Assembly: GCA_021835845.1 (NCBI GenBank)
Contig: JAKBJU010000011.1
Span: 3,528 to 67,527 of the forward strand
DNA length: 64,000 nucleotides
Source: Pseudomonadota bacterium
Lineage (GTDB): Bacteria > Pseudomonadota > Gammaproteobacteria > Burkholderiales > JABEVD01
Reading direction: 5' to 3'
The stretch's first letter is position 1, and every line of letters begins with the position of its first letter. A model generated the notes under the pieces. The model saw only the letters and a list, made by a program, of their open reading frames with translations. It ran no database searches and had not been told where the DNA came from. Of this stretch, positions 34,609-43,702 are shown piece by piece. Both the position numbers and the translations under genes were made by a program.

Positions 34609-35904
34609 TCAGGCAGCCTGTTGCTTGGCTTTGATTTTCGCGACTTCCTCGTCCCATCCGTCGGTCCTGACATAGGGATTCATTCTGGGACTCGCAACCA
34701 TGTTCGGATCGACATCGATGCCCATCGCATCCAGGAAATTCACCAAGCCGATGCGCTCGATCATTTCGCCGGTACGCTCATGCTCCAGCGCATTCTCGGC
34801 AAAGAAATCAATGATGCGCTGGCCGAGATCGACGAGCTGCTCCATGTCCTCGTCCGTTTCGAGCTTCATGAAGGGAACCACAACAGTGCCCATCAGATCG
34901 CCGATCTTCAGCGTACGCTTGCCCCCGACGAGAACCGTCGCTCCCTTGTCCTTGCCGGGAGAGAGCGCACCGGTCATGACATTGATGCAATGCATGCAGC
35001 GCACGCAGTCATGGTTGTCGATTTCCACGGCATGGGTGTCGCTGACGGCGACGCTGGAGACATGCTCGCCCTTCCTCACATCCTTGATTTCCTTCAACTG
35101 GAAAGCCTTGGTCGGGCAGCGCGCCACCACGTCGTTGACAAGCTCGTTCATGCCGTGCTTGGCGAACCACTTCTTCGCCAGCGCCTCATCCGTCCTGATG
35201 TTGTCGCGCCAAGTGCCGATGACGGCCATGTCGGCACGCTGAATCGAATTCATGCAGTCGTTGGGACAACCGGAAAACTTGAATTTGAACTTGTAGGGCA
35301 GCGAAGGACGATGAATATCGTCCACAAAGGTATTGAGCACCATGCGATGCGCCTTGGCTTCGTCGTAGCAGGATTGCTCGCAACGGGCAGCCCCCACGCA
35401 GGACATGGAAGTGCGCACGGCAGGCCCTGCACCGCCCAGATCGAAGCCGAGTTCGTTAATCTCGTCGAAAGCGCCCTGGACATTGTCGGTCGTCGCACCT
35501 TGGAACATGATGTCGCCGGACTGGCCATGGAAAGCGATCAGCCCCGAGCCGTGGCGCTCCCAGATGTCGGCCATCTTGCGCAGCACGTCCGTGTTGTAGT
35601 GCATTCCGGGCGGAGGCTGCACGCGCAGGGTATGGAATTCGGCAGCATCCTTGTAAATCGGCTCGCCTTTCTCATCCTTGAGTTCGGTAAAGCGCGGAAT
35701 GATGCCGCCGCCGTAGCCGAAAACCCCGACCGTGCCGCCCTTCCAGTAGCCTTTCTTGGTTTGGTACGAAGTTTCGAGCTGGCCGAGCAAATCGACCGCC
35801 ATGTCATTATCCTGAGCCAGGCGCTTCAGACCCGTAACGAAGCTGGGCCACGGGCCTTTCTCGAGCTCGTCGAGATTCGGCGTGTCGTGCATTTTCTTAG
35901 CCAT
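34609..35904 (-). CDS. dsrA: Reverse dissimilatory sulfite reductase alpha subunit
   Basis: TP.LDELE.GPWPSFV, SCVGAARCE, FKFSGCPNDC, CVRCMHC; AGGAGG RBS before ATG 35904. Confidence 0.98.
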   Translation of the reverse strand: MAKKMHDTPNLDELEKGPWPSFVTGLKRLAQDNDMAVDLLGQLETSYQTKKGYWKGGTVGVFGYGGGIIPRFTELKDEKGEPIYKDAAEFHTLRVQPPPGMHYNTDVLRKMADIWERHGSGLIAFHGQSGDIMFQGATTDNVQGAFDEINELGFDLGGAGPAVRTSMSCVGAARCEQSCYDEAKAHRMVLNTFVDDIHRPSLPYKFKFKFSGCPNDCMNSIQRADMAVIGTWRDNIRTDEALAKKWFAKHGMNELVNDVVARCPTKAFQLKEIKDVRKGEHVSSVAVSDTHAVEIDNHDCVRCMHCINVMTGALSPGKDKGATVLVGGKRTLKIGDLMGTVVVPFMKLETDEDMEQLVDLGQRIIDFFAENALEHERTGEMIERIGLVNFLDAMGIDVDPNMVASPRMNPYVRTDGWDEEVAKIKAKQQAA

Positions 35905-36025
35905 GAATCCTCCTACACATGAAATTATGGAAAGGTCCTCTCGAACCGCCGGCGATCTTGGTCGCCTGTATTCTAGACGCTCCGCCACCTGTGATATATT
36001 AGACAAGCCTGATAGTGCTGTGTAA

Positions 36026-36068
36026 ACTACCCTTCAGGGTTATACCCTCACCCCCCCTACTGGCTATA
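36026..36068 (-). promoter_or_regulatory. Tandem 19-bp box pair in the divergent dsrA promoter region
   Basis: Minus strand TATAGCCAGTAGGGGGGGT and TATAACCCTGAAGGGTAGT, starts 24 bp apart. Confidence 0.6.
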
Positions 36069-36155: not shown

Positions 36156-36371
36156 ATGACGCAAATCAGCGAACTGGAAAAATTCAGGATACCACTTGGC
36201 GGCCAGGAGATCGAGCTGCAGCAGGTCGATTACGCCGAAGGCGGGATGAGCCTGCTGCGGCTGCGCATCCGGGAAGGGAAGCGCTTCACCATATTCGACA
36301 TTGACCCCGTGACCGCGAAACAATGGGCCAATGCGATGCAGATCTGGGCAAATTCCGTCGATGGCAAATGA
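36156..36371 (+). CDS. Small hypothetical protein (first gene of the divergent operon)
   Basis: 71 aa, LLRLRIREGKRFTIFDID motif; overlaps next gene. Confidence 0.75.
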   Translation: MTQISELEKFRIPLGGQEIELQQVDYAEGGMSLLRLRIREGKRFTIFDIDPVTAKQWANAMQIWANSVDGK

Positions 36372-36954
36372 AATGACCGACGTCCGCTTCGATCTCGAGG
36401 GCAGATTCGTTCCGGAGGGCTATGCCTTTCCCCTGTGGGGCGAGGTGACGAGAATCCTGCCGGAGCTGGAAGATTTCGAGCTTGCAGGAATACTGCCGCT
36501 GAAGGGTGCGGCAAGCGGGGAAGGCATGCTGCTGCCCAGACGCGCCAAGCTCGCACTGCGCATTCCCACGAGTTTCGTTCGGAACGCACTTGAATTGTCG
36601 GGAAAAACCCTCGACATCGAAGGCAATCCGCTGCATGTCGGAACCGGAAACCCGAGGGAAATCGAAGCCCATCCCACGCTGCGCTCGCAGTTCGTGGCAA
36701 GCGAAAAGATCGAGACGGATTTCCTCAAGGAAGTCGAGACGCAGCTGGAAAAGCTCGAAGTATCCTGCAAATGGATCTGCGGCAGGAGACAAACCCTGAA
36801 AAACGGGGAAACAGTCCTTTCAGGCTACAGCCTGGCGGTACACGATCTCAAGCCGCCCGCCTCGATCAGGCTGCAGCAGGCGGGGCTCGGCAATTACCGT
36901 CGTTTCGGCTGCGGCCTGTTCGTCCCCCACAAGACGATAGCAGGCCTGGATTGA
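36361..36954 (+). CDS. cas6: Solo Cas6-like RAMP protein (Cas6/Cmx6, type I-MYXAN-like)
   Basis: C-terminal Gly-rich loop GLGNYRRFGCGLFVP, R..L.LRIP, L.GKTLDI.G..L.VG, S..LQ..G; about 197 aa; alternative start 36373. Confidence 0.8.
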   Translation: MANEMTDVRFDLEGRFVPEGYAFPLWGEVTRILPELEDFELAGILPLKGAASGEGMLLPRRAKLALRIPTSFVRNALELSGKTLDIEGNPLHVGTGNPREIEAHPTLRSQFVASEKIETDFLKEVETQLEKLEVSCKWICGRRQTLKNGETVLSGYSLAVHDLKPPASIRLQQAGLGNYRRFGCGLFVPHKTIAGLD

Positions 36955-36990
36955 CCGGAAGACTTTTAATTTCGTTTGGAGACAAGAAAA

Positions 36991-37320
36991 ATGGCATATC
37001 ATATCAATGGAGTTGACGTCGAAACCGATGACGACGGCTATCTGCTGGAAGCCGACTATAGCAACGAGGCAGTCGAAGTGATCGCTGCGGCAGAAGGCAT
37101 CGCGCTGAACCCGGATCACTGGAAAATCATCGACTATATGCGCGACCAATACCGCGAGCACGGCCACACGCCCAATTTCAGGAACATGCTGAAAGAAGTT
37201 CAGGAATTCTGGCCCGAGGCGGACAGCAAGGCGCTATACGACCTCTTTCCCATGGGGCCCGCAAAGCAGGGGGCAAAAGTGGCCGGCCTGCCCCAGCCCT
37301 ATGGGAAAGGCGGATACTGA
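36991..37320 (+). CDS. DsrC/TusE-family paralog lacking cysteines
   Basis: ETDDDGYL, A..EGI.L..DHW.II.YMR, LYDLFP.GPAKQGAKVAGLP.P; no Cys; ends GKGGY. Confidence 0.88.
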   Translation: MAYHINGVDVETDDDGYLLEADYSNEAVEVIAAAEGIALNPDHWKIIDYMRDQYREHGHTPNFRNMLKEVQEFWPEADSKALYDLFPMGPAKQGAKVAGLPQPYGKGGY

Positions 37321-37331
37321 AGGGACTCGAA

Positions 37332-37811
37332 ATGGAAAAAATCAATGCCAATGTCGTGCTGAATGTGAAGGGAACGACCTGCCCCGGCCCCCTTCTGGGT
37401 GCCAAAAGAATGGTGGACGAACTCGATGCCGGGCAGATCCTGCTTCTGATCTCCGACTGTCCCGGCACGCAGGATGACCTCTTCGCCTGGACGAGGCAGA
37501 CCGACAACCAGGTTGTGCATACCGAAAAGCTGCCGGACGGGGGAACGGGATATTACATCAGAAAGGGCAAGGGCCACGAATACCATGCCAACGTGCTGCT
37601 CGACATCCGCGGCGTCCTTTGCCCTGGCCCCATAGTCGAAGCCAAGAAACTGCTCAACGGCATGCAGTCCGGAGAAATCCTGAAGCTCACCAGCAACTGT
37701 CCCGGAATCCGCTCCGACATCGAGGGCTGGGCAAAAACAACCGGAATGAGCATCCTCGAAGCAGCCGAAATCGCTCCCGGCGAATACGATTTCTACATCC
37801 GGAAGGGATGA
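37332..37811 (+). CDS. Tandem two-domain TusA-family sulfurtransferase
   Basis: Two repeats each with L(N/D)..G..CPGP...AK and a second (D/N)CPG motif, each ending YIRKG. Confidence 0.88.
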   Translation: MEKINANVVLNVKGTTCPGPLLGAKRMVDELDAGQILLLISDCPGTQDDLFAWTRQTDNQVVHTEKLPDGGTGYYIRKGKGHEYHANVLLDIRGVLCPGPIVEAKKLLNGMQSGEILKLTSNCPGIRSDIEGWAKTTGMSILEAAEIAPGEYDFYIRKG

Positions 37812-38407
37812 TGCGGGTCAAGAGCCGCTGGTTCAAGGGCGATCGGGAAAAGTCCCCGCAGGAGATCGCGGGTGCGGCAGCCTTCATCCTGTGGAAAATC
37901 GCCCAGAATGCGCTGAAGAGCATGAGGAGCGCAGATTTCGGCATCGAAGCCGGTCCGCAGTACTTCGATTATCTTCAGGAATTCCTGATTTTCCTGGTGC
38001 AGATCGCGGACCGAATCGCCTTCGAAAAAATGGACAGCGATTCCAGGGTGGCCTTCACCACGGAACTTGCGCTCAGGGTCGCCGAAAACTTTGCGGAAAA
38101 CAGGAGCGCCCTGCTGGGACAGTCTTTGGGGACAAGCAAGAGCGAATTCATCACTCGCTACAACGAACGCTCGAACGTCTATTCGGAATGCAGCTTTGGT
38201 GCGGACGGCCCCGATTTTGCCTTCATCCGCTATCTCGGGCACTCTATACTGGAATTCTGCGAGGACAGGGACAAGAGCTGGGTAGTCGACCAGATCATGG
38301 CCATCGAAGCTCCGGAGGCCATCTCGACGGTGCAAAGAGCGATGAAGGGGCTGCTCGACACCGAGTCTGCCGGTCAGAGGCTGGGGTCGGGGATCGGCCC
38401 GGACTGA
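37808..38407 (+). CDS. Hypothetical protein in dsr-associated operon
   Basis: 199 aa, overlaps upstream stop codon; MRVKSRW..., EFLIFLVQIADR, WVVDQIM.IEAP. Confidence 0.75.
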   Translation: MMRVKSRWFKGDREKSPQEIAGAAAFILWKIAQNALKSMRSADFGIEAGPQYFDYLQEFLIFLVQIADRIAFEKMDSDSRVAFTTELALRVAENFAENRSALLGQSLGTSKSEFITRYNERSNVYSECSFGADGPDFAFIRYLGHSILEFCEDRDKSWVVDQIMAIEAPEAISTVQRAMKGLLDTESAGQRLGSGIGPD

Positions 38408-38408
38408 A

Positions 38409-39230
38409 ATGGACCGGAATGCCTATCTCGCCTGGCGCGACAGGAAGTTCGCAGAATCGCCTCCTTCGGCGGACGATCTCGTCGTCGAAGTCAATCATCC
38501 CGATGCATTGACCCCGTCAGAGCTGGCGGCGATCAGAGAGCGCATCCGACGAGCCAACATGGCGATCTACGCGAGCTCCGCCACCGACACCGACATGAAG
38601 CGTCTGGGCCGCCAGTTTGGTCTGGAAAGTCTCGATGCCAACTGGCTGGCAGGAGAGGACGGCATTTCCGAGATCAAGGTGTCAGAATCCGGCAAGGGCT
38701 ACATTCCCTACACGAACAAGCCGATCAAATGGCATACCGACGGCTATTACAATCCGATTGATCGGAAAATCCGCGCGATGCTGCTGCATTGCGTCCAGGA
38801 TGCCGAAACCGGCGGGGAAAACCGGCTGATGGATCACGAAATCCTGTATTGCCTGCTCAGGGATGAAAATCCCGAATACATCCTTGCGCTCTCGGAGCCC
38901 GACGCAATGACGATCCCCGAAAGAATGGGAGAAGACGGCGTCGCGCGGCCTGAAGAGGCCGGGGCGGTTTTCTCCTTCGACCCCGACGGGCATCTGCACA
39001 TGCGCTACACTGCGAGAACCCGGTCGATCCAGTGGAAGCAGGACGAAGCGACCTTTGCCGCAGTCTCCGCGATCGAGGACATCCTCTCGTCCGCTTCGCC
39101 CTACATGCACGCAATCAGACTGCAGCCGGGCATGGGGATCATCTGCAACAACGTGCTGCACGATAGATCGGGGTTTACGGGAAACTCTCGCCTGCTCTAC
39201 CGCGCCCGCTATCACGACCGCATCAAATGA
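38409..39230 (+). CDS. TauD/TfdA-like Fe(II)/2-oxoglutarate dioxygenase
   Basis: IPYT...I.WHTDGYY (HxD), LLHCV..A..GG.N, NNVLHDR..F, RLLYR. Confidence 0.88.
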   Translation: MDRNAYLAWRDRKFAESPPSADDLVVEVNHPDALTPSELAAIRERIRRANMAIYASSATDTDMKRLGRQFGLESLDANWLAGEDGISEIKVSESGKGYIPYTNKPIKWHTDGYYNPIDRKIRAMLLHCVQDAETGGENRLMDHEILYCLLRDENPEYILALSEPDAMTIPERMGEDGVARPEEAGAVFSFDPDGHLHMRYTARTRSIQWKQDEATFAAVSAIEDILSSASPYMHAIRLQPGMGIICNNVLHDRSGFTGNSRLLYRARYHDRIK

Positions 39231-39263
39231 AAACCCCTCGCCTTGAAAAAGGCGAGGGGTTTT
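39230..39263. terminator. Bidirectional intrinsic terminator
   Basis: AAAACCCCTCGCC-N8-GGCGAGGGGTTTT between convergent operons. Confidence 0.9.
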
Positions 39264-39274
39264 GCCAGCCGAAC

Positions 39275-40522
39275 TTACCAGCCGTAGGAAATGCCGAGAG
39301 AATCCTCAGAGAGGGAATTGCTGACATTGCCTCCGCCATATGCTGGGGGAATGTCGTTGATGCCGGACACGGTATTGCTGAAGGCATGCATGTAGAACAC
39401 CGATATTTCAGACTTGTCCGCAAGCTTCCAGGTGGCGCCCAGGGTCACATTGTCGGTGACCACCCCGGGGGCGAGGATGTTGAAGAAGGTTTCGGATGTC
39501 GCATAGGGCTCCTTGTTGTGGGCCCATCCGGCCCGCAAGGTCAGCGTGGAACTCCAGTCGTGGCTGACACCGATCTTGTAAACCGTCATATTCTGCCAGC
39601 CGAATCCCGCACCGTTCGGAGCGCCGAGATTGAAGGGAACGCCGCCGAGGGGGTTGCTGATCGATGCCACATCGCCGTACATGATCCGCTGGATGTCGAA
39701 GGCGACAGTGGTTACAGGCGCAGCCTTCACCGCGACGCCCACGCCATAGGTGGCAGGAATATCGAACTCACCCAGATTGGCAAACAGGCCGCTGTATTTG
39801 CTGAACTTGGTCATCGTTGTCTTGGTCTGGTAGGTCGCACCCAAAGTCACATCGGGAGTCACCTGTCCTATCCAGCCGAAATGGAGTCCATATCCCGTAG
39901 ACGTATCGGTACCATTATTCGAGGTTGAATTCGCCCCAACCCCCGGCGCCGTTGCGGCGGAAAATCCCTGAATGCCCTGCGCGGAAAAGGTCTGGTAGGC
40001 AATATTCAGGGAAACGCCGACCGAATTGTGCTCGTCCACCTTTTTCGACCAGGTCGGCGCAATGAAAAGCTGCTTTAGGTTGACCCCGCCCTCACCCTGC
40101 CCGCCGTAAGCTGCAAAGGGATTGTTCATGTAGCCGGTATTCATGCCGCCGTTGCCGTAGATGGATACGCCGAGCGAATAATCCGGCGCCATCATGTGGT
40201 TATAGCCGAAATTCGGGATCAGGAAATTGCTGATATTATTGCCGTCGAAAGAGCCATTTGCCCCGCCTGCCCCGGTGATCTGCGAATTCCTGTCGGGATG
40301 GAACAGCTCAAGGCCGAAATCGATCCTGTTGCCGACCATCACCATCCCTGCAGGATTAGTTGCGGCAGCCAGAGAATCCTGCGGAAAGGCGATACCCACT
40401 CCGCCCATACCTTCGGACTTGATGCCATAGCCGTTCGAAAAATAGCCATTGGTGGCATAAGCTGCCGGCGCGATCAGACCGCCAGCAATCATCATCGAAA
40501 CCAGTATTTTACGCTTCTTCAT
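39275..40522 (-). CDS. FadL/OmpP1-family outer-membrane transporter
   Basis: Signal peptide, ATNGY, GMGG...A...D......NPAG, YGNGGMNT. Confidence 0.88.
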   Translation of the reverse strand: MKKRKILVSMMIAGGLIAPAAYATNGYFSNGYGIKSEGMGGVGIAFPQDSLAAATNPAGMVMVGNRIDFGLELFHPDRNSQITGAGGANGSFDGNNISNFLIPNFGYNHMMAPDYSLGVSIYGNGGMNTGYMNNPFAAYGGQGEGGVNLKQLFIAPTWSKKVDEHNSVGVSLNIAYQTFSAQGIQGFSAATAPGVGANSTSNNGTDTSTGYGLHFGWIGQVTPDVTLGATYQTKTTMTKFSKYSGLFANLGEFDIPATYGVGVAVKAAPVTTVAFDIQRIMYGDVASISNPLGGVPFNLGAPNGAGFGWQNMTVYKIGVSHDWSSTLTLRAGWAHNKEPYATSETFFNILAPGVVTDNVTLGATWKLADKSEISVFYMHAFSNTVSGINDIPPAYGGGNVSNSLSEDSLGISYGW

Positions 40523-40561
40523 GTTGCCCCTCTCTCTAGTTGTATTGGAATCAAGAAAACT

Positions 40562-41029
40562 TCAAACGAACAGACAGATATCGGTTTCCCCCGCGAATTC
40601 CATGAAGGTTGCCGCGCCGCCATATTCGATCCCGTCGATGAAATCGCTCTTTTCGAACTCGAACAGATCGACCGTCATCTGGCAGGCGACGAACTTGACG
40701 TCCGCTTCCTGGCACAGGCTGCGCAATTCCTCAAGGGAAGCGACCCCCTTCTTCTTCAGCTTGTCCTTCATCATCATGGTCGCCATGGATTCCATTCCGG
40801 GCAGCATCTGCACGAAAACCGGCATCGGAACCGGCATCGGCATCGCAGGATTGGCGAGCGGGCTGATCTTGACATCGGAAAGATCCTTCTTCAGAAGCTG
40901 CAGCCCGTAGAAAGTGAAAAACACCTGGACGTCGTAACCCAGCGCAGCCGCGGTGGAAGCCAGAATGAATGGCGGATAGGCCATGTCAAGGGTGCCCTTG
41001 GTCGCGATGATCGCCATTTTCTTTGTCAT
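40562..41029 (-). CDS. dsrE2: DsrE2-type sulfur carrier (DsrE/DsrF/DrsH-like)
   Basis: KGTLDMAYPPFILASTAAA, FFTFYGL, ACQMTVD; next to tusA. Confidence 0.88.
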   Translation of the reverse strand: MTKKMAIIATKGTLDMAYPPFILASTAAALGYDVQVFFTFYGLQLLKKDLSDVKISPLANPAMPMPVPMPVFVQMLPGMESMATMMMKDKLKKKGVASLEELRSLCQEADVKFVACQMTVDLFEFEKSDFIDGIEYGGAATFMEFAGETDICLFV

Positions 41030-41061
41030 GAAATTTCCCCTTTATCGAACCTGACCAACCA

Positions 41062-41289
41062 TCACTTCTTCTTCATGAAAAAGACGTATTCTCCGCCTTG
41101 CTCGCTCTGCTCGAGCAACTCATTGCCGGTCTGCTTAGCGAAAGCCTGCATGTCCTTGACGGAGCCGCAGTCGGTCGAAACGACCCTGAGCACCTGCCCG
41201 GAATCCATGTCGGCAAGGGATTTTTTGGTCTTCAGGATGGGGAGCGGGCAATTGAGGCCGCGCGCGTCGAGTTCTTTCTGAAAATCCAT
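41062..41289 (-). CDS. tusA: TusA sulfurtransferase
   Basis: LDARGLNCPLPILKTKK. Confidence 0.93.
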   Translation of the reverse strand: MDFQKELDARGLNCPLPILKTKKSLADMDSGQVLRVVSTDCGSVKDMQAFAKQTGNELLEQSEQGGEYVFFMKKK

Positions 41290-41387
41290 AGCTGTCTCCG
41301 TAAGTTAAATTTATAAATCCATGTTTCATAGGAATGAAATATGTTCCCAATATAATGCTATTAGGCGGAATTTGCCATTCCATCGTC

Positions 41388-41430
41388 TATAGCCGAAATG
41401 GGTAATACCCATATAGCCCGCATGGGGGGT
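41388..41430 (+). promoter_or_regulatory. Tandem 19-bp box pair upstream of tusA
   Basis: TATAGCCGAAATGGGTAAT (41388) and TATAGCCCGCATGGGGGGT (41412), 24 bp apart. Confidence 0.6.
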
Positions 41431-41435
41431 GCACT

Positions 41436-42233
41436 TCACAAGCGCACTGCCAGAACCGGCTTTTCCGCTCGCTCCACCACTTTCTGCGTTGTCCCGCCGG
41501 AGCGGACATTCCCCATGCCCACCACGATCAAATCGACATCTGCAGGCGTCGCAAGAATCTCGTCGCAGGGCCTGCCAATGCGCACCATTTCGTGAACCTC
41601 GGCACCCAGCGCTCGCGCCAAATCCGCATTGACCGAAACATTGCGCTGCGCTCCCTTCCTTGACGCCTCGCTTGAAGCGACGCCCAGGACATGAAGCGGC
41701 AAGCCGCATTCCACGGCAATCGCGGCTGCCACGCTGGCAACGCTTGCAGAACCTTCCGATTCATCGACTGCAGCCAATATCCCGCGCGACCACATGCCGC
41801 AGGCGCGCGGCACCATCAAGACGGAACAGGGCGCGGAATCGATGATTCTGCTCACCATTTCCCCGACCAGAAGTTTGGCCAGGAAACCGCGCCGGCCGCG
41901 GCGCCTGATGACGATGAGATCTGATTTGCAATTCAATGCTTCCTGAACGATTTCGTCAGCAGGCGCATCCCCTCTTCTTGCATGGATATCGACCGACACG
42001 CCCATTTTATTCGCACTCATGCGCAAGTCGTCGACCCTCGCGGCGATATCCTGCTCGGTTCGGTCGGCAAGCCTGTGGGCCGCCATTTCGAACTCGGGGT
42101 TGCTCAAGACGGGCACGACAACGGAGAGCGGAAGATTGCATCGCCTCGCCATTTCGAGCGCGACGCGCTCCGCACCAGAATCGAATTCGGTGCGCTCAGT
42201 GGCAAGCAGAATATTTCTGAAGGGATGGTCCAT
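41436..42233 (-). CDS. Universal stress protein (two USP domains)
   Basis: FRNILLAT, DLIVI..RG...L..LLVG, APCSVL.VP, ILAAVDES, DLIVVG...G.TT.KVV..A.KPVL. Confidence 0.9.
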   Translation of the reverse strand: MDHPFRNILLATERTEFDSGAERVALEMARRCNLPLSVVVPVLSNPEFEMAAHRLADRTEQDIAARVDDLRMSANKMGVSVDIHARRGDAPADEIVQEALNCKSDLIVIRRRGRRGFLAKLLVGEMVSRIIDSAPCSVLMVPRACGMWSRGILAAVDESEGSASVASVAAAIAVECGLPLHVLGVASSEASRKGAQRNVSVNADLARALGAEVHEMVRIGRPCDEILATPADVDLIVVGMGNVRSGGTTQKVVERAEKPVLAVRL

Positions 42234-42234
42234 A

Positions 42235-42654
42235 TCAATGTCTCCCCGAAAGCAGGCCGGATGCAGCCGAAACCAGGATGACGATTTCCAGCGCACACAG
42301 GACAAGATAGATCCAGTCTCGCCGCTTCGCATAGACCGGCATGACCGCCAGGATGCAGAATATGGAACAGCCGGAAAGGATCGCAATGCCGAGAAAGCTC
42401 GCAAGATCGCCGCTGCCCAGCATCCCGATCCAGGCCCATCCCTTCGGCATGCCGGTCACTTCCAGGTATTTGTCTGCAGGCAGGTTCCAGACCTGCGGCA
42501 GGCGCTCAAGCGGAATTCTGGCCGGCAGGATGCCGAACACATAGGCGACGAAAGTGCCGATGAGGGTCAGAAATCCCAGGAGCGTGCTCCAGTGCAGCCA
42601 GGCAGCGTAGCGCAGTTGCTCCTTCTCGTACTGCCCTGCGTCCTTCAGGCCCAT
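42235..42654 (-). CDS. DUF1634-like membrane protein
   Basis: EQLRYA..L, three hydrophobic segments, GW.W...L..GD; directly after TauE gene. Confidence 0.7.
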   Translation of the reverse strand: MGLKDAGQYEKEQLRYAAWLHWSTLLGFLTLIGTFVAYVFGILPARIPLERLPQVWNLPADKYLEVTGMPKGWAWIGMLGSGDLASFLGIAILSGCSIFCILAVMPVYAKRRDWIYLVLCALEIVILVSAASGLLSGRH

Positions 42655-43562
42655 ATTCCGAGTCCTTTCAGCAAGGCGCCGACGCCGGACACGAACAGCA
42701 TGGCGATCACCATCCTGCGAATCACCGAGGCATTGAGCACCGACAAAAGATGCGCCCCTATCCTCGCCCCGATCATCATGCCGATGACAGAAGGCACAGC
42801 GATGACGGGCAATATCGCGCCGTTGTCGAGATAATACCAAGTCGCCGAAGAACTGGCCGTAGTCAGGATAAGACTGGAAGTGCCTGCAGCCACCTTGAGC
42901 GGAACCCCCATCAGGAGATTGAGAACCGGCACATTGGCCCATCCCGCCCCGACGCCGAAAAGCCCGCCCAGAAATCCGATCACCAGAAACAGCACCATGC
43001 CAAGCGGCGTGCGGTGAACCTGCCAGTTCACGTCTTCTCCGGAAATTGCATCTCGGAATATGCCATGGATGCCGAGCATTCCGGAAAGCGGATCGGAAGC
43101 AGGCACATGGGGATATTCGGACTTCCTTGCGACAGCCATCAATACGACGATGCCGAGGATGGTAAGCCCCAGGGCGACCTGAACCACATTGGCAGGCAGG
43201 GCAAGGCCCAGCATGGCTCCCCCTATGGCGCTGACGGATGCGCCGAATGCAAGCGGCATCGCAAGACGGAGATTGGCAAGCCCCGCCTTCAACAGGGAAG
43301 GCCCCGCCGCAAGGGAGCTCGCAAGCGCAACGAGCAGTCCCGCGCCGCGCACGAAATCGAGGTGAAAAGGAAAAAAGCTGCCCACGATGGGCACGAAAAG
43401 CACCCCCCCGCCGACTCCGGCCGGAACTGCCACGATCCCGAGGAAGAAGCAGACGACAAAAAGCGCAAGCGGCCACACCCACCAGGCGCCAGCGCCGGCT
43501 GCAGCGCCGGCTGCAAATGCAGGATGCGAGAAAAAGAGCAGGGGCAGCGGCAGGCAGCGCAT
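42645..43562 (-). CDS. TauE/SafE-family sulfite exporter-like permease
   Basis: AGVGGGVLFVP, GLFGVGAGWANVP, P.KVAAGTS; start uncertain (43613 possible). Confidence 0.88.
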   Translation of the reverse strand: MRCLPLPLLFFSHPAFAAGAAAGAGAWWVWPLALFVVCFFLGIVAVPAGVGGGVLFVPIVGSFFPFHLDFVRGAGLLVALASSLAAGPSLLKAGLANLRLAMPLAFGASVSAIGGAMLGLALPANVVQVALGLTILGIVVLMAVARKSEYPHVPASDPLSGMLGIHGIFRDAISGEDVNWQVHRTPLGMVLFLVIGFLGGLFGVGAGWANVPVLNLLMGVPLKVAAGTSSLILTTASSSATWYYLDNGAILPVIAVPSVIGMMIGARIGAHLLSVLNASVIRRMVIAMLFVSGVGALLKGLGIWA

Positions 43563-43702
43563 CACGAATGCGTCTGTTCCGGCGCCATTACGGCAAAAGG
43601 TCGAAAAGGACATATGGTTCTGCAATCGGTTAATACGCTAATATATCGCATTGTACTCAATATCAGCATGCAATTAGGCGCAATCCAGGGGGGGGGGGCG
43701 TC

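Follow-up and report, generated by a model that had tools for sequence, protein, structure and literature searches.

A CRISPR-free Cas6 module associated with the oxidative dsr genes of Gamma- and Betaproteobacteria

The rDsr pathway (reverse dissimilatory sulfite reductase) drives much of the microbial oxidation of sulfur, and several of its accessory genes are still without a mechanism. This work concerns a window of 64,000 nucleotides (the whole stretch of DNA analyzed: contig JAKBJU010000011.1 of assembly GCA_021835845.1, positions 3,528-67,527, forward strand), in which a gene of the Cas6/Cmx6 family stands in a small operon divergent from dsrA. Such proteins belong to the type I-MYXAN and I-B systems of CRISPR (short palindromic repeats, clustered and regularly interspaced) and CRISPR-associated (Cas) proteins, and the dsr-linked Cas6 shares with them the family hidden Markov models, the fold, the G-rich loop and, in most relatives, the P.DH motif. 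On the other hand, it is 24-29% identical to them, occurs without a cas operon or array, is divergent from dsrA, has invariant residues of its own (R57, E114 and G137), is fused to DUF6967 in two genomes, and has lost the histidine of that motif in the window's lineage.

The reuse of Cas proteins outside adaptive immunity has been reviewed for CRISPR-associated transposons (CAST), STAND-linked type I-E systems and HRAMP (PMC8730458). According to the part of this review used here, those derivatives keep several Cas subunits and a role in defence or mobility, whereas the dsr case is a single Cas6 in energy metabolism; the word 'sulfur' does not occur in PMC8730458. Among the neighboring genes, the TauD-like one has a name already: a gene of the tauD kind that runs in the direction opposite to the dsr cluster is dsrQ (Lenk et al. 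2012 via PMC7596348). In the portion of PMC7596348 consulted, that name covers the tauD-like gene only, no Cas6 is named and CRISPR does not occur. Moreover, the part of the PMC11267869 supplement used here annotates Alvin_1248 of Allochromatium vinosum, three loci before dsrA (Alvin_1251), as 'Cas6-related protein', and the suspicion of the original prediction that cas6 neighbors of dsr genes may already be annotated was therefore well founded. This neighbor of dsrA is visible in the public annotation (Alvin_1248-1250), and it is absent from the main text of PMC11267869 as far as that text was available. From its position and annotation, Alvin_1248 is a probable ortholog of the dsr-linked Cas6.

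No published description of a Cas6-dsr module was found in full-text literature searches, although older dsr papers and supplements may mention the gene. The main texts of three papers (PMC10504309, PMC11406059 and PMC6397845) contain neither cas6 nor CRISPR, and cas6 does not occur in one supplement of the last; the literature compared also includes parts of PMC10952691, PMC5728499, PMC3368242 and bioRxiv 10.1101/2024.06.14.599071. The novelty lies in the module, as the Cas6 protein family itself is known and its annotation beside dsrA is public for Allochromatium. Also new are the PUR/PC4-type fold model of DUF6967, the fusion of DUF6967 to Cas6, and the locality of the histidine loss. The module of the CRISPR-free Cas6 is real and widespread, an accessory of oxidative Dsr that is apparently undescribed, and the association is strong.

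Co-inheritance of Cas6 with dsrA

In the window, the Cas6/Cmx6-family gene is located at positions 36373-36954 of the + strand (193 aa; databases place its start at 36361, giving 197 aa). Its divergent partner dsrA (34609-35904, - strand; TIGR02064, 517 bits, above the cut-off) heads the dsrABEFHCMK... operon. Among 201 genomes of the window's order, the Cas6 family was found in 42 and dsrA in 43, with both in 41 and neither in 157, so that 41 of the 44 genomes with either gene carry both; 40 of these 41 pairs are divergent neighbors separated by 443-2,086 bp. The class-wide draw of 351 genomes gave Cas6 in 111, dsrA in 108, both in 104 (104/115 with either) and neither in 236. Of the 104 pairs in this draw, 80 are no more than 6 kb apart, every one of them divergent; in four the genes share a contig at a long distance, and 20 pairs are split between contigs. 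Over both draws, 120 of 120 nearby pairs are divergent, and the conserved dsr linkage on which the original prediction depended is thus present. A family of small genomes (1.0-2.8 Mb, 61 genomes) has both genes in 47, that is, in 47 of the 50 with either, and neither in 11, all from one genus.

Cas6 therefore tracks dsrA, not CRISPR, and its constancy among the dsrA-bearing genomes of the three draws (41/43, 104/108 and 47/48 with Cas6) is roughly that of a core gene. The co-occurrence persists where Cas6 lies away from dsrA and in genomes of 1.0 Mb, and the gene is single-copy and without internal stops in nearly all carriers, these 1.0-Mb genomes included. No P-value is given for the co-occurrence because kin are not independent and three genomes are common to the class-wide and small-genome draws. 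In the small-genome family, Cas6 is usually beside the rnc-era genes, away from dsrA (gene names read from the sequences); the relocated gene and the one for RNase III are usually divergent, the order there being rnc-era-recO-pdxJ (L069, L084-L095).

Seven genomes of the class-wide draw carry Cas6 only. One of them has a true CRISPR operon (G608, described below), four show a dsrQ-Cas6 context near contig ends, one (G535) has no reference sulfur gene nearby, and one (G871) is unpublished and was counted only. Two genomes, G140 and G186, have dsrA without Cas6. Second copies of dsrA in G016, G105 and G163 (L072-L074) have no adjacent dsrB or Cas6 module. Cas6 was found in none of the four dsrA-bearing genomes of another class (161 searched), in a search whose built-in control was silent and whose model was positive in the other draws, and the module is therefore not essential everywhere. 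In a phylum-wide draw, 5 of 351 genomes carried Cas6.

Regarding CRISPR, a simple script for repeat periods, which did detect the arrays of control loci, gave no array anywhere in the assembly, the latter being 95.6% complete and arrays being liable to stay unassembled. Within that same completeness, no cas1 was found in the window's genome, and nine type I-MYXAN reference proteins gave no match there for cas3, cas8, cas7 or cas5. This genome has one PF09559 gene. The absence of an array or other cas gene, noted for 64 kb, extends on these searches to the whole assembly. In the window's order, cas1 occurs in 20 of 42 Cas6 carriers and in 67 of 159 non-carriers (one of these being the unpublished genome G024), and the presence of Cas6 is unrelated to cas1, as expected from the CRISPR independence that had been claimed. 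Metagenome figures refer to the best 80 of 584 confirmed loci, which are biased to close relatives: DUF6967 is present in 79, the DsrC paralog in 78, dsrA in 57 and an I-MYXAN cas gene in none. The same reference-protein test does detect these genes in G608, a dsrA-negative gammaproteobacterium whose true cas6-cas3-cas8b-cas7-cas5-cas4/1 operon contains a member of the same Pfam family as the window Cas6. Viral contigs gave one weak Cas6 match, and no reference gene was found in its surroundings. Furthermore, a Cmx6 gene on a Gloeobacter plasmid (NZ_CP063846.1; L102:2974-3765) has no annotated cas neighbor within 3 kb and adjoins a cupin gene and a gene of the PAPS (3'-phosphoadenosine-5'-phosphosulfate) reductase family, which may be another use of Cas6 linked to sulfur, independent of the first.

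Cas6 and its partner proteins

The window Cas6 passes both curated cut-offs, with 177.6 bits for PF09559 (cut-off 26.7) and 127.9 bits for TIGR02807 (cut-off 98.85), which agrees with the Cas6-like RAMP assigned originally from the letters. The RAMP fold was also found: the AlphaFold2 model (predicted local distance difference test, pLDDT, 96.7) has an intact double ferredoxin (RAMP/double-RRM) fold and matches chain B of 8FCU/8FCJ, the Cas6 of a type I-B CAST Cascade, with a template modelling (TM) score of 0.88 and a root-mean-square deviation (rmsd) of 2.1 Å. The G-rich loop near the C-terminus, GLGNYRRFGCG (residues 171-181), is intact and has the GLG-x5-GCG form described before. A search of the ESM Atlas returned Cas6 clusters only, and the close database relatives are metagenome-assembled genomes of Burkholderiales and Nitrosomonadales.

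The suspected loss of the P.DH histidine, which follows the first strand, holds for the window protein but not for the whole group. In the segment VPEGYA (residues 13-18) the family histidine is replaced by Tyr17, and the His41 of the clade is replaced by Leu; all 7 CRISPR-linked proteins and 64 of the 78 dsr-linked ones keep the P.DH histidine, and in this alignment its loss is local to the window's lineage. This histidine is presumed to be the catalytic residue in Cmx6, and 8FCJ chain B carries Asn at its position. Non-catalytic and His-less Cas6 proteins are known, according to the part of PMC3902920 consulted. Residues R57, R63, R176 and K187 are conserved in dsr-linked Cas6; R57, R63 and E114 are invariant across the group, and G137 is another invariant residue of its own.

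In a quick, midpoint-rooted tree, a branch with a support of 98 (SH-aLRT, Shimodaira-Hasegawa-like approximate likelihood ratio test) separates the 78 dsr-linked proteins from 7 CRISPR-linked Cmx6 (six cyanobacterial plasmid proteins and that of G608), and such a separate dsr-linked clade is what a phylogeny had originally been proposed to test for. Another tree gave a similar result. A single origin of the dsr-linked Cas6 is likely, and no more than likely given the small outgroup and the midpoint root. Two genomes of the window's order (G070 and G184; L047, L049) present the gammaproteobacterial dsrQ-Cas6-DsrC arrangement and a higher-scoring dsrA, and their Cas6 proteins group with those of Gammaproteobacteria, which suggests a transfer of the whole dsr region.

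DUF6967 (36156-36371, + strand, 71 aa; PF22295, E 5e-32) precedes Cas6. Its model (pLDDT 92.9) consists of four strands and a helix, and in a VIA-align comparison with 48,161 chains the top six rows consist of repeats of PUR-alpha and a homolog of PC4 (Z 8.0 to 6.4), the best being 8CHW (Z 8.0, rmsd 2.7 Å, 65 of 71 residues aligned). In Foldseek, the best row (E 0.34) is a PC4-like protein bound to single-stranded DNA, and the best non-significant rows are PC4/PUR-like. The modelled protein therefore bears a middling resemblance to a PUR/PC4-type single-strand-binding fold. The four-strand-plus-helix fold is common to the single-stranded nucleic-acid binders PUR-alpha, PC4 and YdbC; however, DUF6967 is 5-13% identical to them with no sequence-level match. 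A sequence search of the PDB with DUF6967 returned nothing credible, and the leads from the ESM Atlas were under 0.9. Its invariant residues are R35, E40, R43, F44, T45, D50, A54, W57 and W64, with the arginines on the sheet. In two near-complete genomes of one genus (G168 and G023; loci L052:6522-7406, - strand, and L031), DUF6967 and Cas6 are fused in one open frame. DUF6967 was not found in five small genomes, in a search whose control was silent.

The DsrC paralog (36991-37320, + strand; family match and residue inspection) is acidic, with a net charge of -10 and an invariant KGGY C-terminus, and it has no cysteine, unlike DsrC/TusE carriers with their active Cys. Cys-less DsrC paralogs, reportedly called RspA by Venceslau et al. 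in 2014, have the DsrC fold without the catalytic cysteines, as in the KGGY-DsrC of the module. KGGY-DsrC is the most constant neighbor of Cas6: it is present in 78 of the best 80 metagenome loci and is the next gene in most gammaproteobacterial loci. It was absent from 7 of 7 Cas6-negative genomes tested and present in 4 of 4 small-genome Cas6 carriers tested, and it is missing altogether from four Cas6 carriers picked for loci without the paralog (G011, G171, G665 and G602). It seems that KGGY-DsrC depends on Cas6 more than Cas6 on KGGY-DsrC. Three further DsrC/TusE-like genes are located elsewhere in the genome (G000, contigs C32 and C11).

The tandem TusA sulfurtransferase (37332-37811, + strand; family match, both CPGP motifs intact by inspection) is not a fixed part of the module as had been proposed, since a two-domain rhodanese replaces it in many loci and other lineages, and other loci lack both. 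It is followed by a conserved protein of 198 aa (37811-38407, + strand) with no Pfam or NCBIfam family in library scans. This protein is possibly DsrS, a post-transcriptional regulator of dsr. In G540, the homolog does not directly follow dsrR, from which ~5 kb with unrelated genes separate it. The last gene encodes the DsrQ/TauD-like dioxygenase (38409-39230, + strand; PF02668, E 4e-21), which has the HxD...H metal motif and is divergent from dsr; the name is that of the part of PMC7596348 used.

Altogether, six tightly packed ORFs on the + strand (open reading frames; 36156-39230) face away from dsrA, so the packed six-gene operon is as originally claimed. The usual arrangement in the window's order is DUF6967 - Cas6 - KGGY-DsrC - (tandem TusA or rhodanese) - 198-aa protein - dsrQ, and in the rest of the class dsrQ - 63-aa protein - Cas6 - RKGGY-DsrC - small proteins ... 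198-aa protein. In the gammaproteobacterial loci L196-L235, three more conserved small proteins without a Pfam family (~63, 67 and 107 aa) flank Cas6, and so do DUF6866 or 2-oxoglutarate-Fe (2OG-Fe) oxygenases.

The operon is closed, as predicted, by a hairpin between the convergent dsrQ and fadL-like genes (39230-39263; 15-bp terminator-like stem, -28 kcal/mol, z -6.5, equal stability in 0 of 200 shuffles), which is probably a bidirectional terminator; it is missing from the consensus-scan listing. An Rfam scan of the window gave one tRNA and no match at the operon. Converging on the module from the - strand (39275-43625) are genes for a FadL-like outer-membrane protein, dsrE2, tusA, a universal stress protein and a TauE-like exporter; fadL-dsrE2-tusA comes after the module in 11-14 of the best 80 metagenome loci.

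Candidate functions of the module

The pairing of a CRISPR-free Cas6 with DUF6967, which is shaped like a single-stranded RNA/DNA binder, suggests control of sulfur oxidation at the RNA level. We hold it to be an even chance that Cas6 is an exapted RNA-binding regulator of sulfur-oxidation transcripts with a PUR-fold helper. A Cas6 of the type I-MYXAN/I-B kind would have left its CRISPR system and become a fixed accessory of oxidative Dsr in Gamma- and Betaproteobacteria, where it most probably still acts on RNA and would bind a structured site in sulfur-metabolism transcripts and alter their processing, stability or translation. In Betaproteobacteria, DUF6967, with its modelled fold, could help Cas6 by binding or opening single-stranded RNA. 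Most relatives of Cas6 retain the histidine and may cut RNA, and the Tyr-bearing protein of the window's lineage would probably bind only, without cleavage. More speculatively, word of the sulfur status might reach Cas6 from the DsrC without cysteines and from the carriers of sulfur, TusA or rhodanese. The fuller proposal, a CRISPR-derived riboregulator of sulfur oxidizers in which Cas6, the PUR/PC4-fold helper and a Cys-free DsrC input process or shield sulfur-oxidation mRNAs, is tentative and falls somewhat short of even. Post-transcriptional control of dsr has been reported without a mechanism, and this riboregulator would be a candidate for it.

An RNA-binding regulator is favored by the co-inheritance with dsrA and the independence from cas1, by the intact fold and G-rich loop of Cas6 with its conserved basic residues, by the PUR/PC4 matches of DUF6967 and its fusion to Cas6, and by the existence of non-catalytic Cas6 proteins. 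Expression data from A. vinosum add to this. In RNA runs, one metatranscriptome contained a tenth of the words, and its contigs, from mixed relatives, say nothing on expression or processing. In the part of PMC11267869 Table S2 used here, whose sulfur column was recomputed there from Weissgerber 2013, Alvin_1248 rises 12.5-fold on elemental sulfur versus sulfide, and Alvin_1249 and 1250 change 6.3- and 17.7-fold (P < 0.01), with dsrA-dsrP down at 0.09-0.25. Alvin_1248 is thus not co-regulated with dsr, and its expression changes with the source of sulfur, which fits a regulator without proving one.

Several observations weigh against an RNA-binding regulator. In the same source (PMC11267869), most dsr P-values in the sulfur column are > 0.05, and on pyrite dsrA drops to 0.04 with the Cas6 gene steady at 1.1, so that the two are not simply anti-correlated. 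The PUR match of DUF6967 is middling (best Z 8.0), with none in Foldseek at E <= 0.001; DUF6967 is in only 1 of 40 gammaproteobacterial loci, and it persists where Cas6 was lost (G140 and G186). Moreover, R139, invariant in the 7 CRISPR-linked Cmx6, is retained in only 19 of 78 dsr-linked proteins, and the median core net charge is 0 in 69 beta/gamma proteins versus +5 in the 7 CRISPR-linked ones. Since the histidine is mostly kept and R57, R63 and E114 are invariant, with R139 mostly lost and the charge neutral, the binding surface of Cas6 is remodelled and not decayed. Furthermore, the search for an RNA target gave none: a TGCC-N4-GGCG hairpin is typical of I-MYXAN repeats, and no hairpin of this kind occurs at a conserved non-coding site in dsr loci. 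A synonymous-conservation scan of 13 genes gave only two windows, in dsrA and dsrF, marginally above the threshold.

Two candidate targets were discarded. Matches to MYXAN-repeat-like hairpins in dsr loci cluster only within coding frames and are codon-driven. The GGCGATC/GGTCGCC hairpin of the dsrA leader (35951-35966), suggested originally as a substrate, does exist, but it is no more stable than chance (z 0.09), and its pattern, in just 8 of 104 dsrA leaders and mostly confined to close relatives, rules it out as a general Cas6 target. By eye, a GNRA-loop hairpin (35924-35937, - strand) is located ~20-35 nt before the dsrA start and varies compatibly across the genus (L002, L003, L050, L059, L060 and L065); L060 does not have the GGCGATC/GGTCGCC hairpin.

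The remodelled, charge-neutral surface would also suit a Cas6 fold that serves as a protein adaptor and not as an RNA binder, and that, for example, sorts, protects or matures DsrC/DsrAB together with KGGY-DsrC and the carriers. The constancy of KGGY-DsrC beside Cas6, with its absence from the seven Cas6-negative and its presence in the four small-genome Cas6-positive genomes, argues for this adaptor, which we regard as possible and about half as probable as an RNA-binding regulator. However, the four carriers without KGGY-DsrC do not fit it, and the PUR/PC4-fold partner and its fusion to Cas6 point to nucleic acid.

The region shared by dsrA and the module contains a palindromic box, TACCC-N4-GGGT(T/A) (36028-36041), present in 38 of 76 dereplicated dsrA leaders versus a mean of 0.42 in 50 shuffles; it often occurs as a tandem, with a GATGG box after it (32/76 leaders). 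This palindrome is probably a repressor or activator site and reads better as a DNA operator. It raises the unlikely alternative that the module, with DUF6967 and the Cys-less DsrC, controls transcription on DNA at the dsrA-operon palindrome. PC4/PUR proteins bind single-stranded DNA (structure titles), and DsrC itself, reportedly shown by Grimm et al. in 2010, binds the dsrA promoter. Nevertheless, Cas6 folds are RNA-directed, the Cas6 gene is kept where it is far from dsrA, and the box may be like an ordinary repressor site of the CsoR/RcnR/CstR type, although no CsoR/RcnR-family regulator gene (PF02583) was found in the window's genome.

Still less probable is the second original suggestion, in which an RNA, tRNA or other, is brought by Cas6 to the carriers of sulfur and the dioxygenase for sulfur or oxygen modification. 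Cas6 does cluster with TusA or rhodanese, with a fold like that of TusE and with Fe/2OG-type oxygenases, but the DsrC paralog lacks a Cys for carrying sulfur, the sulfurtransferase differs between loci or is lacking, and the distribution tracks dsrA and not tRNA-modification pathways. Finally, although the TIGR02807 cut-off is passed and the dsrA-negative G608 has a true cas operon in the same Pfam family, an ordinary CRISPR Cas6 serving an array elsewhere, or a hitch-hiking relic, is very improbable and already largely refuted by the lack of an array or cas1 in the window's genome, the 22 of 42 carriers without cas1, the single, stop-free copy kept by nearly all carriers down to 1.0 Mb, and the separate branch of the tree.

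Meaning for sulfur-oxidizing bacteria

The near-core Cas6 of dsrA-bearing genomes is currently annotated as a CRISPR gene, and matches to PF09559 or TIGR02807 in sulfur oxidizers are no indication of CRISPR immunity. Alvin_1248 makes the function directly testable in Allochromatium vinosum, where genetics exist. If Cas6 binds RNA, one Cas protein by itself would have been domesticated for central metabolism, and DUF6967 and KGGY-DsrC would gain a role. If the proposed riboregulator is real, an energy pathway would have a domesticated Cas protein among its core parts, in bacteria ranging from those of aquifers to those with reduced genomes of 1 Mb.

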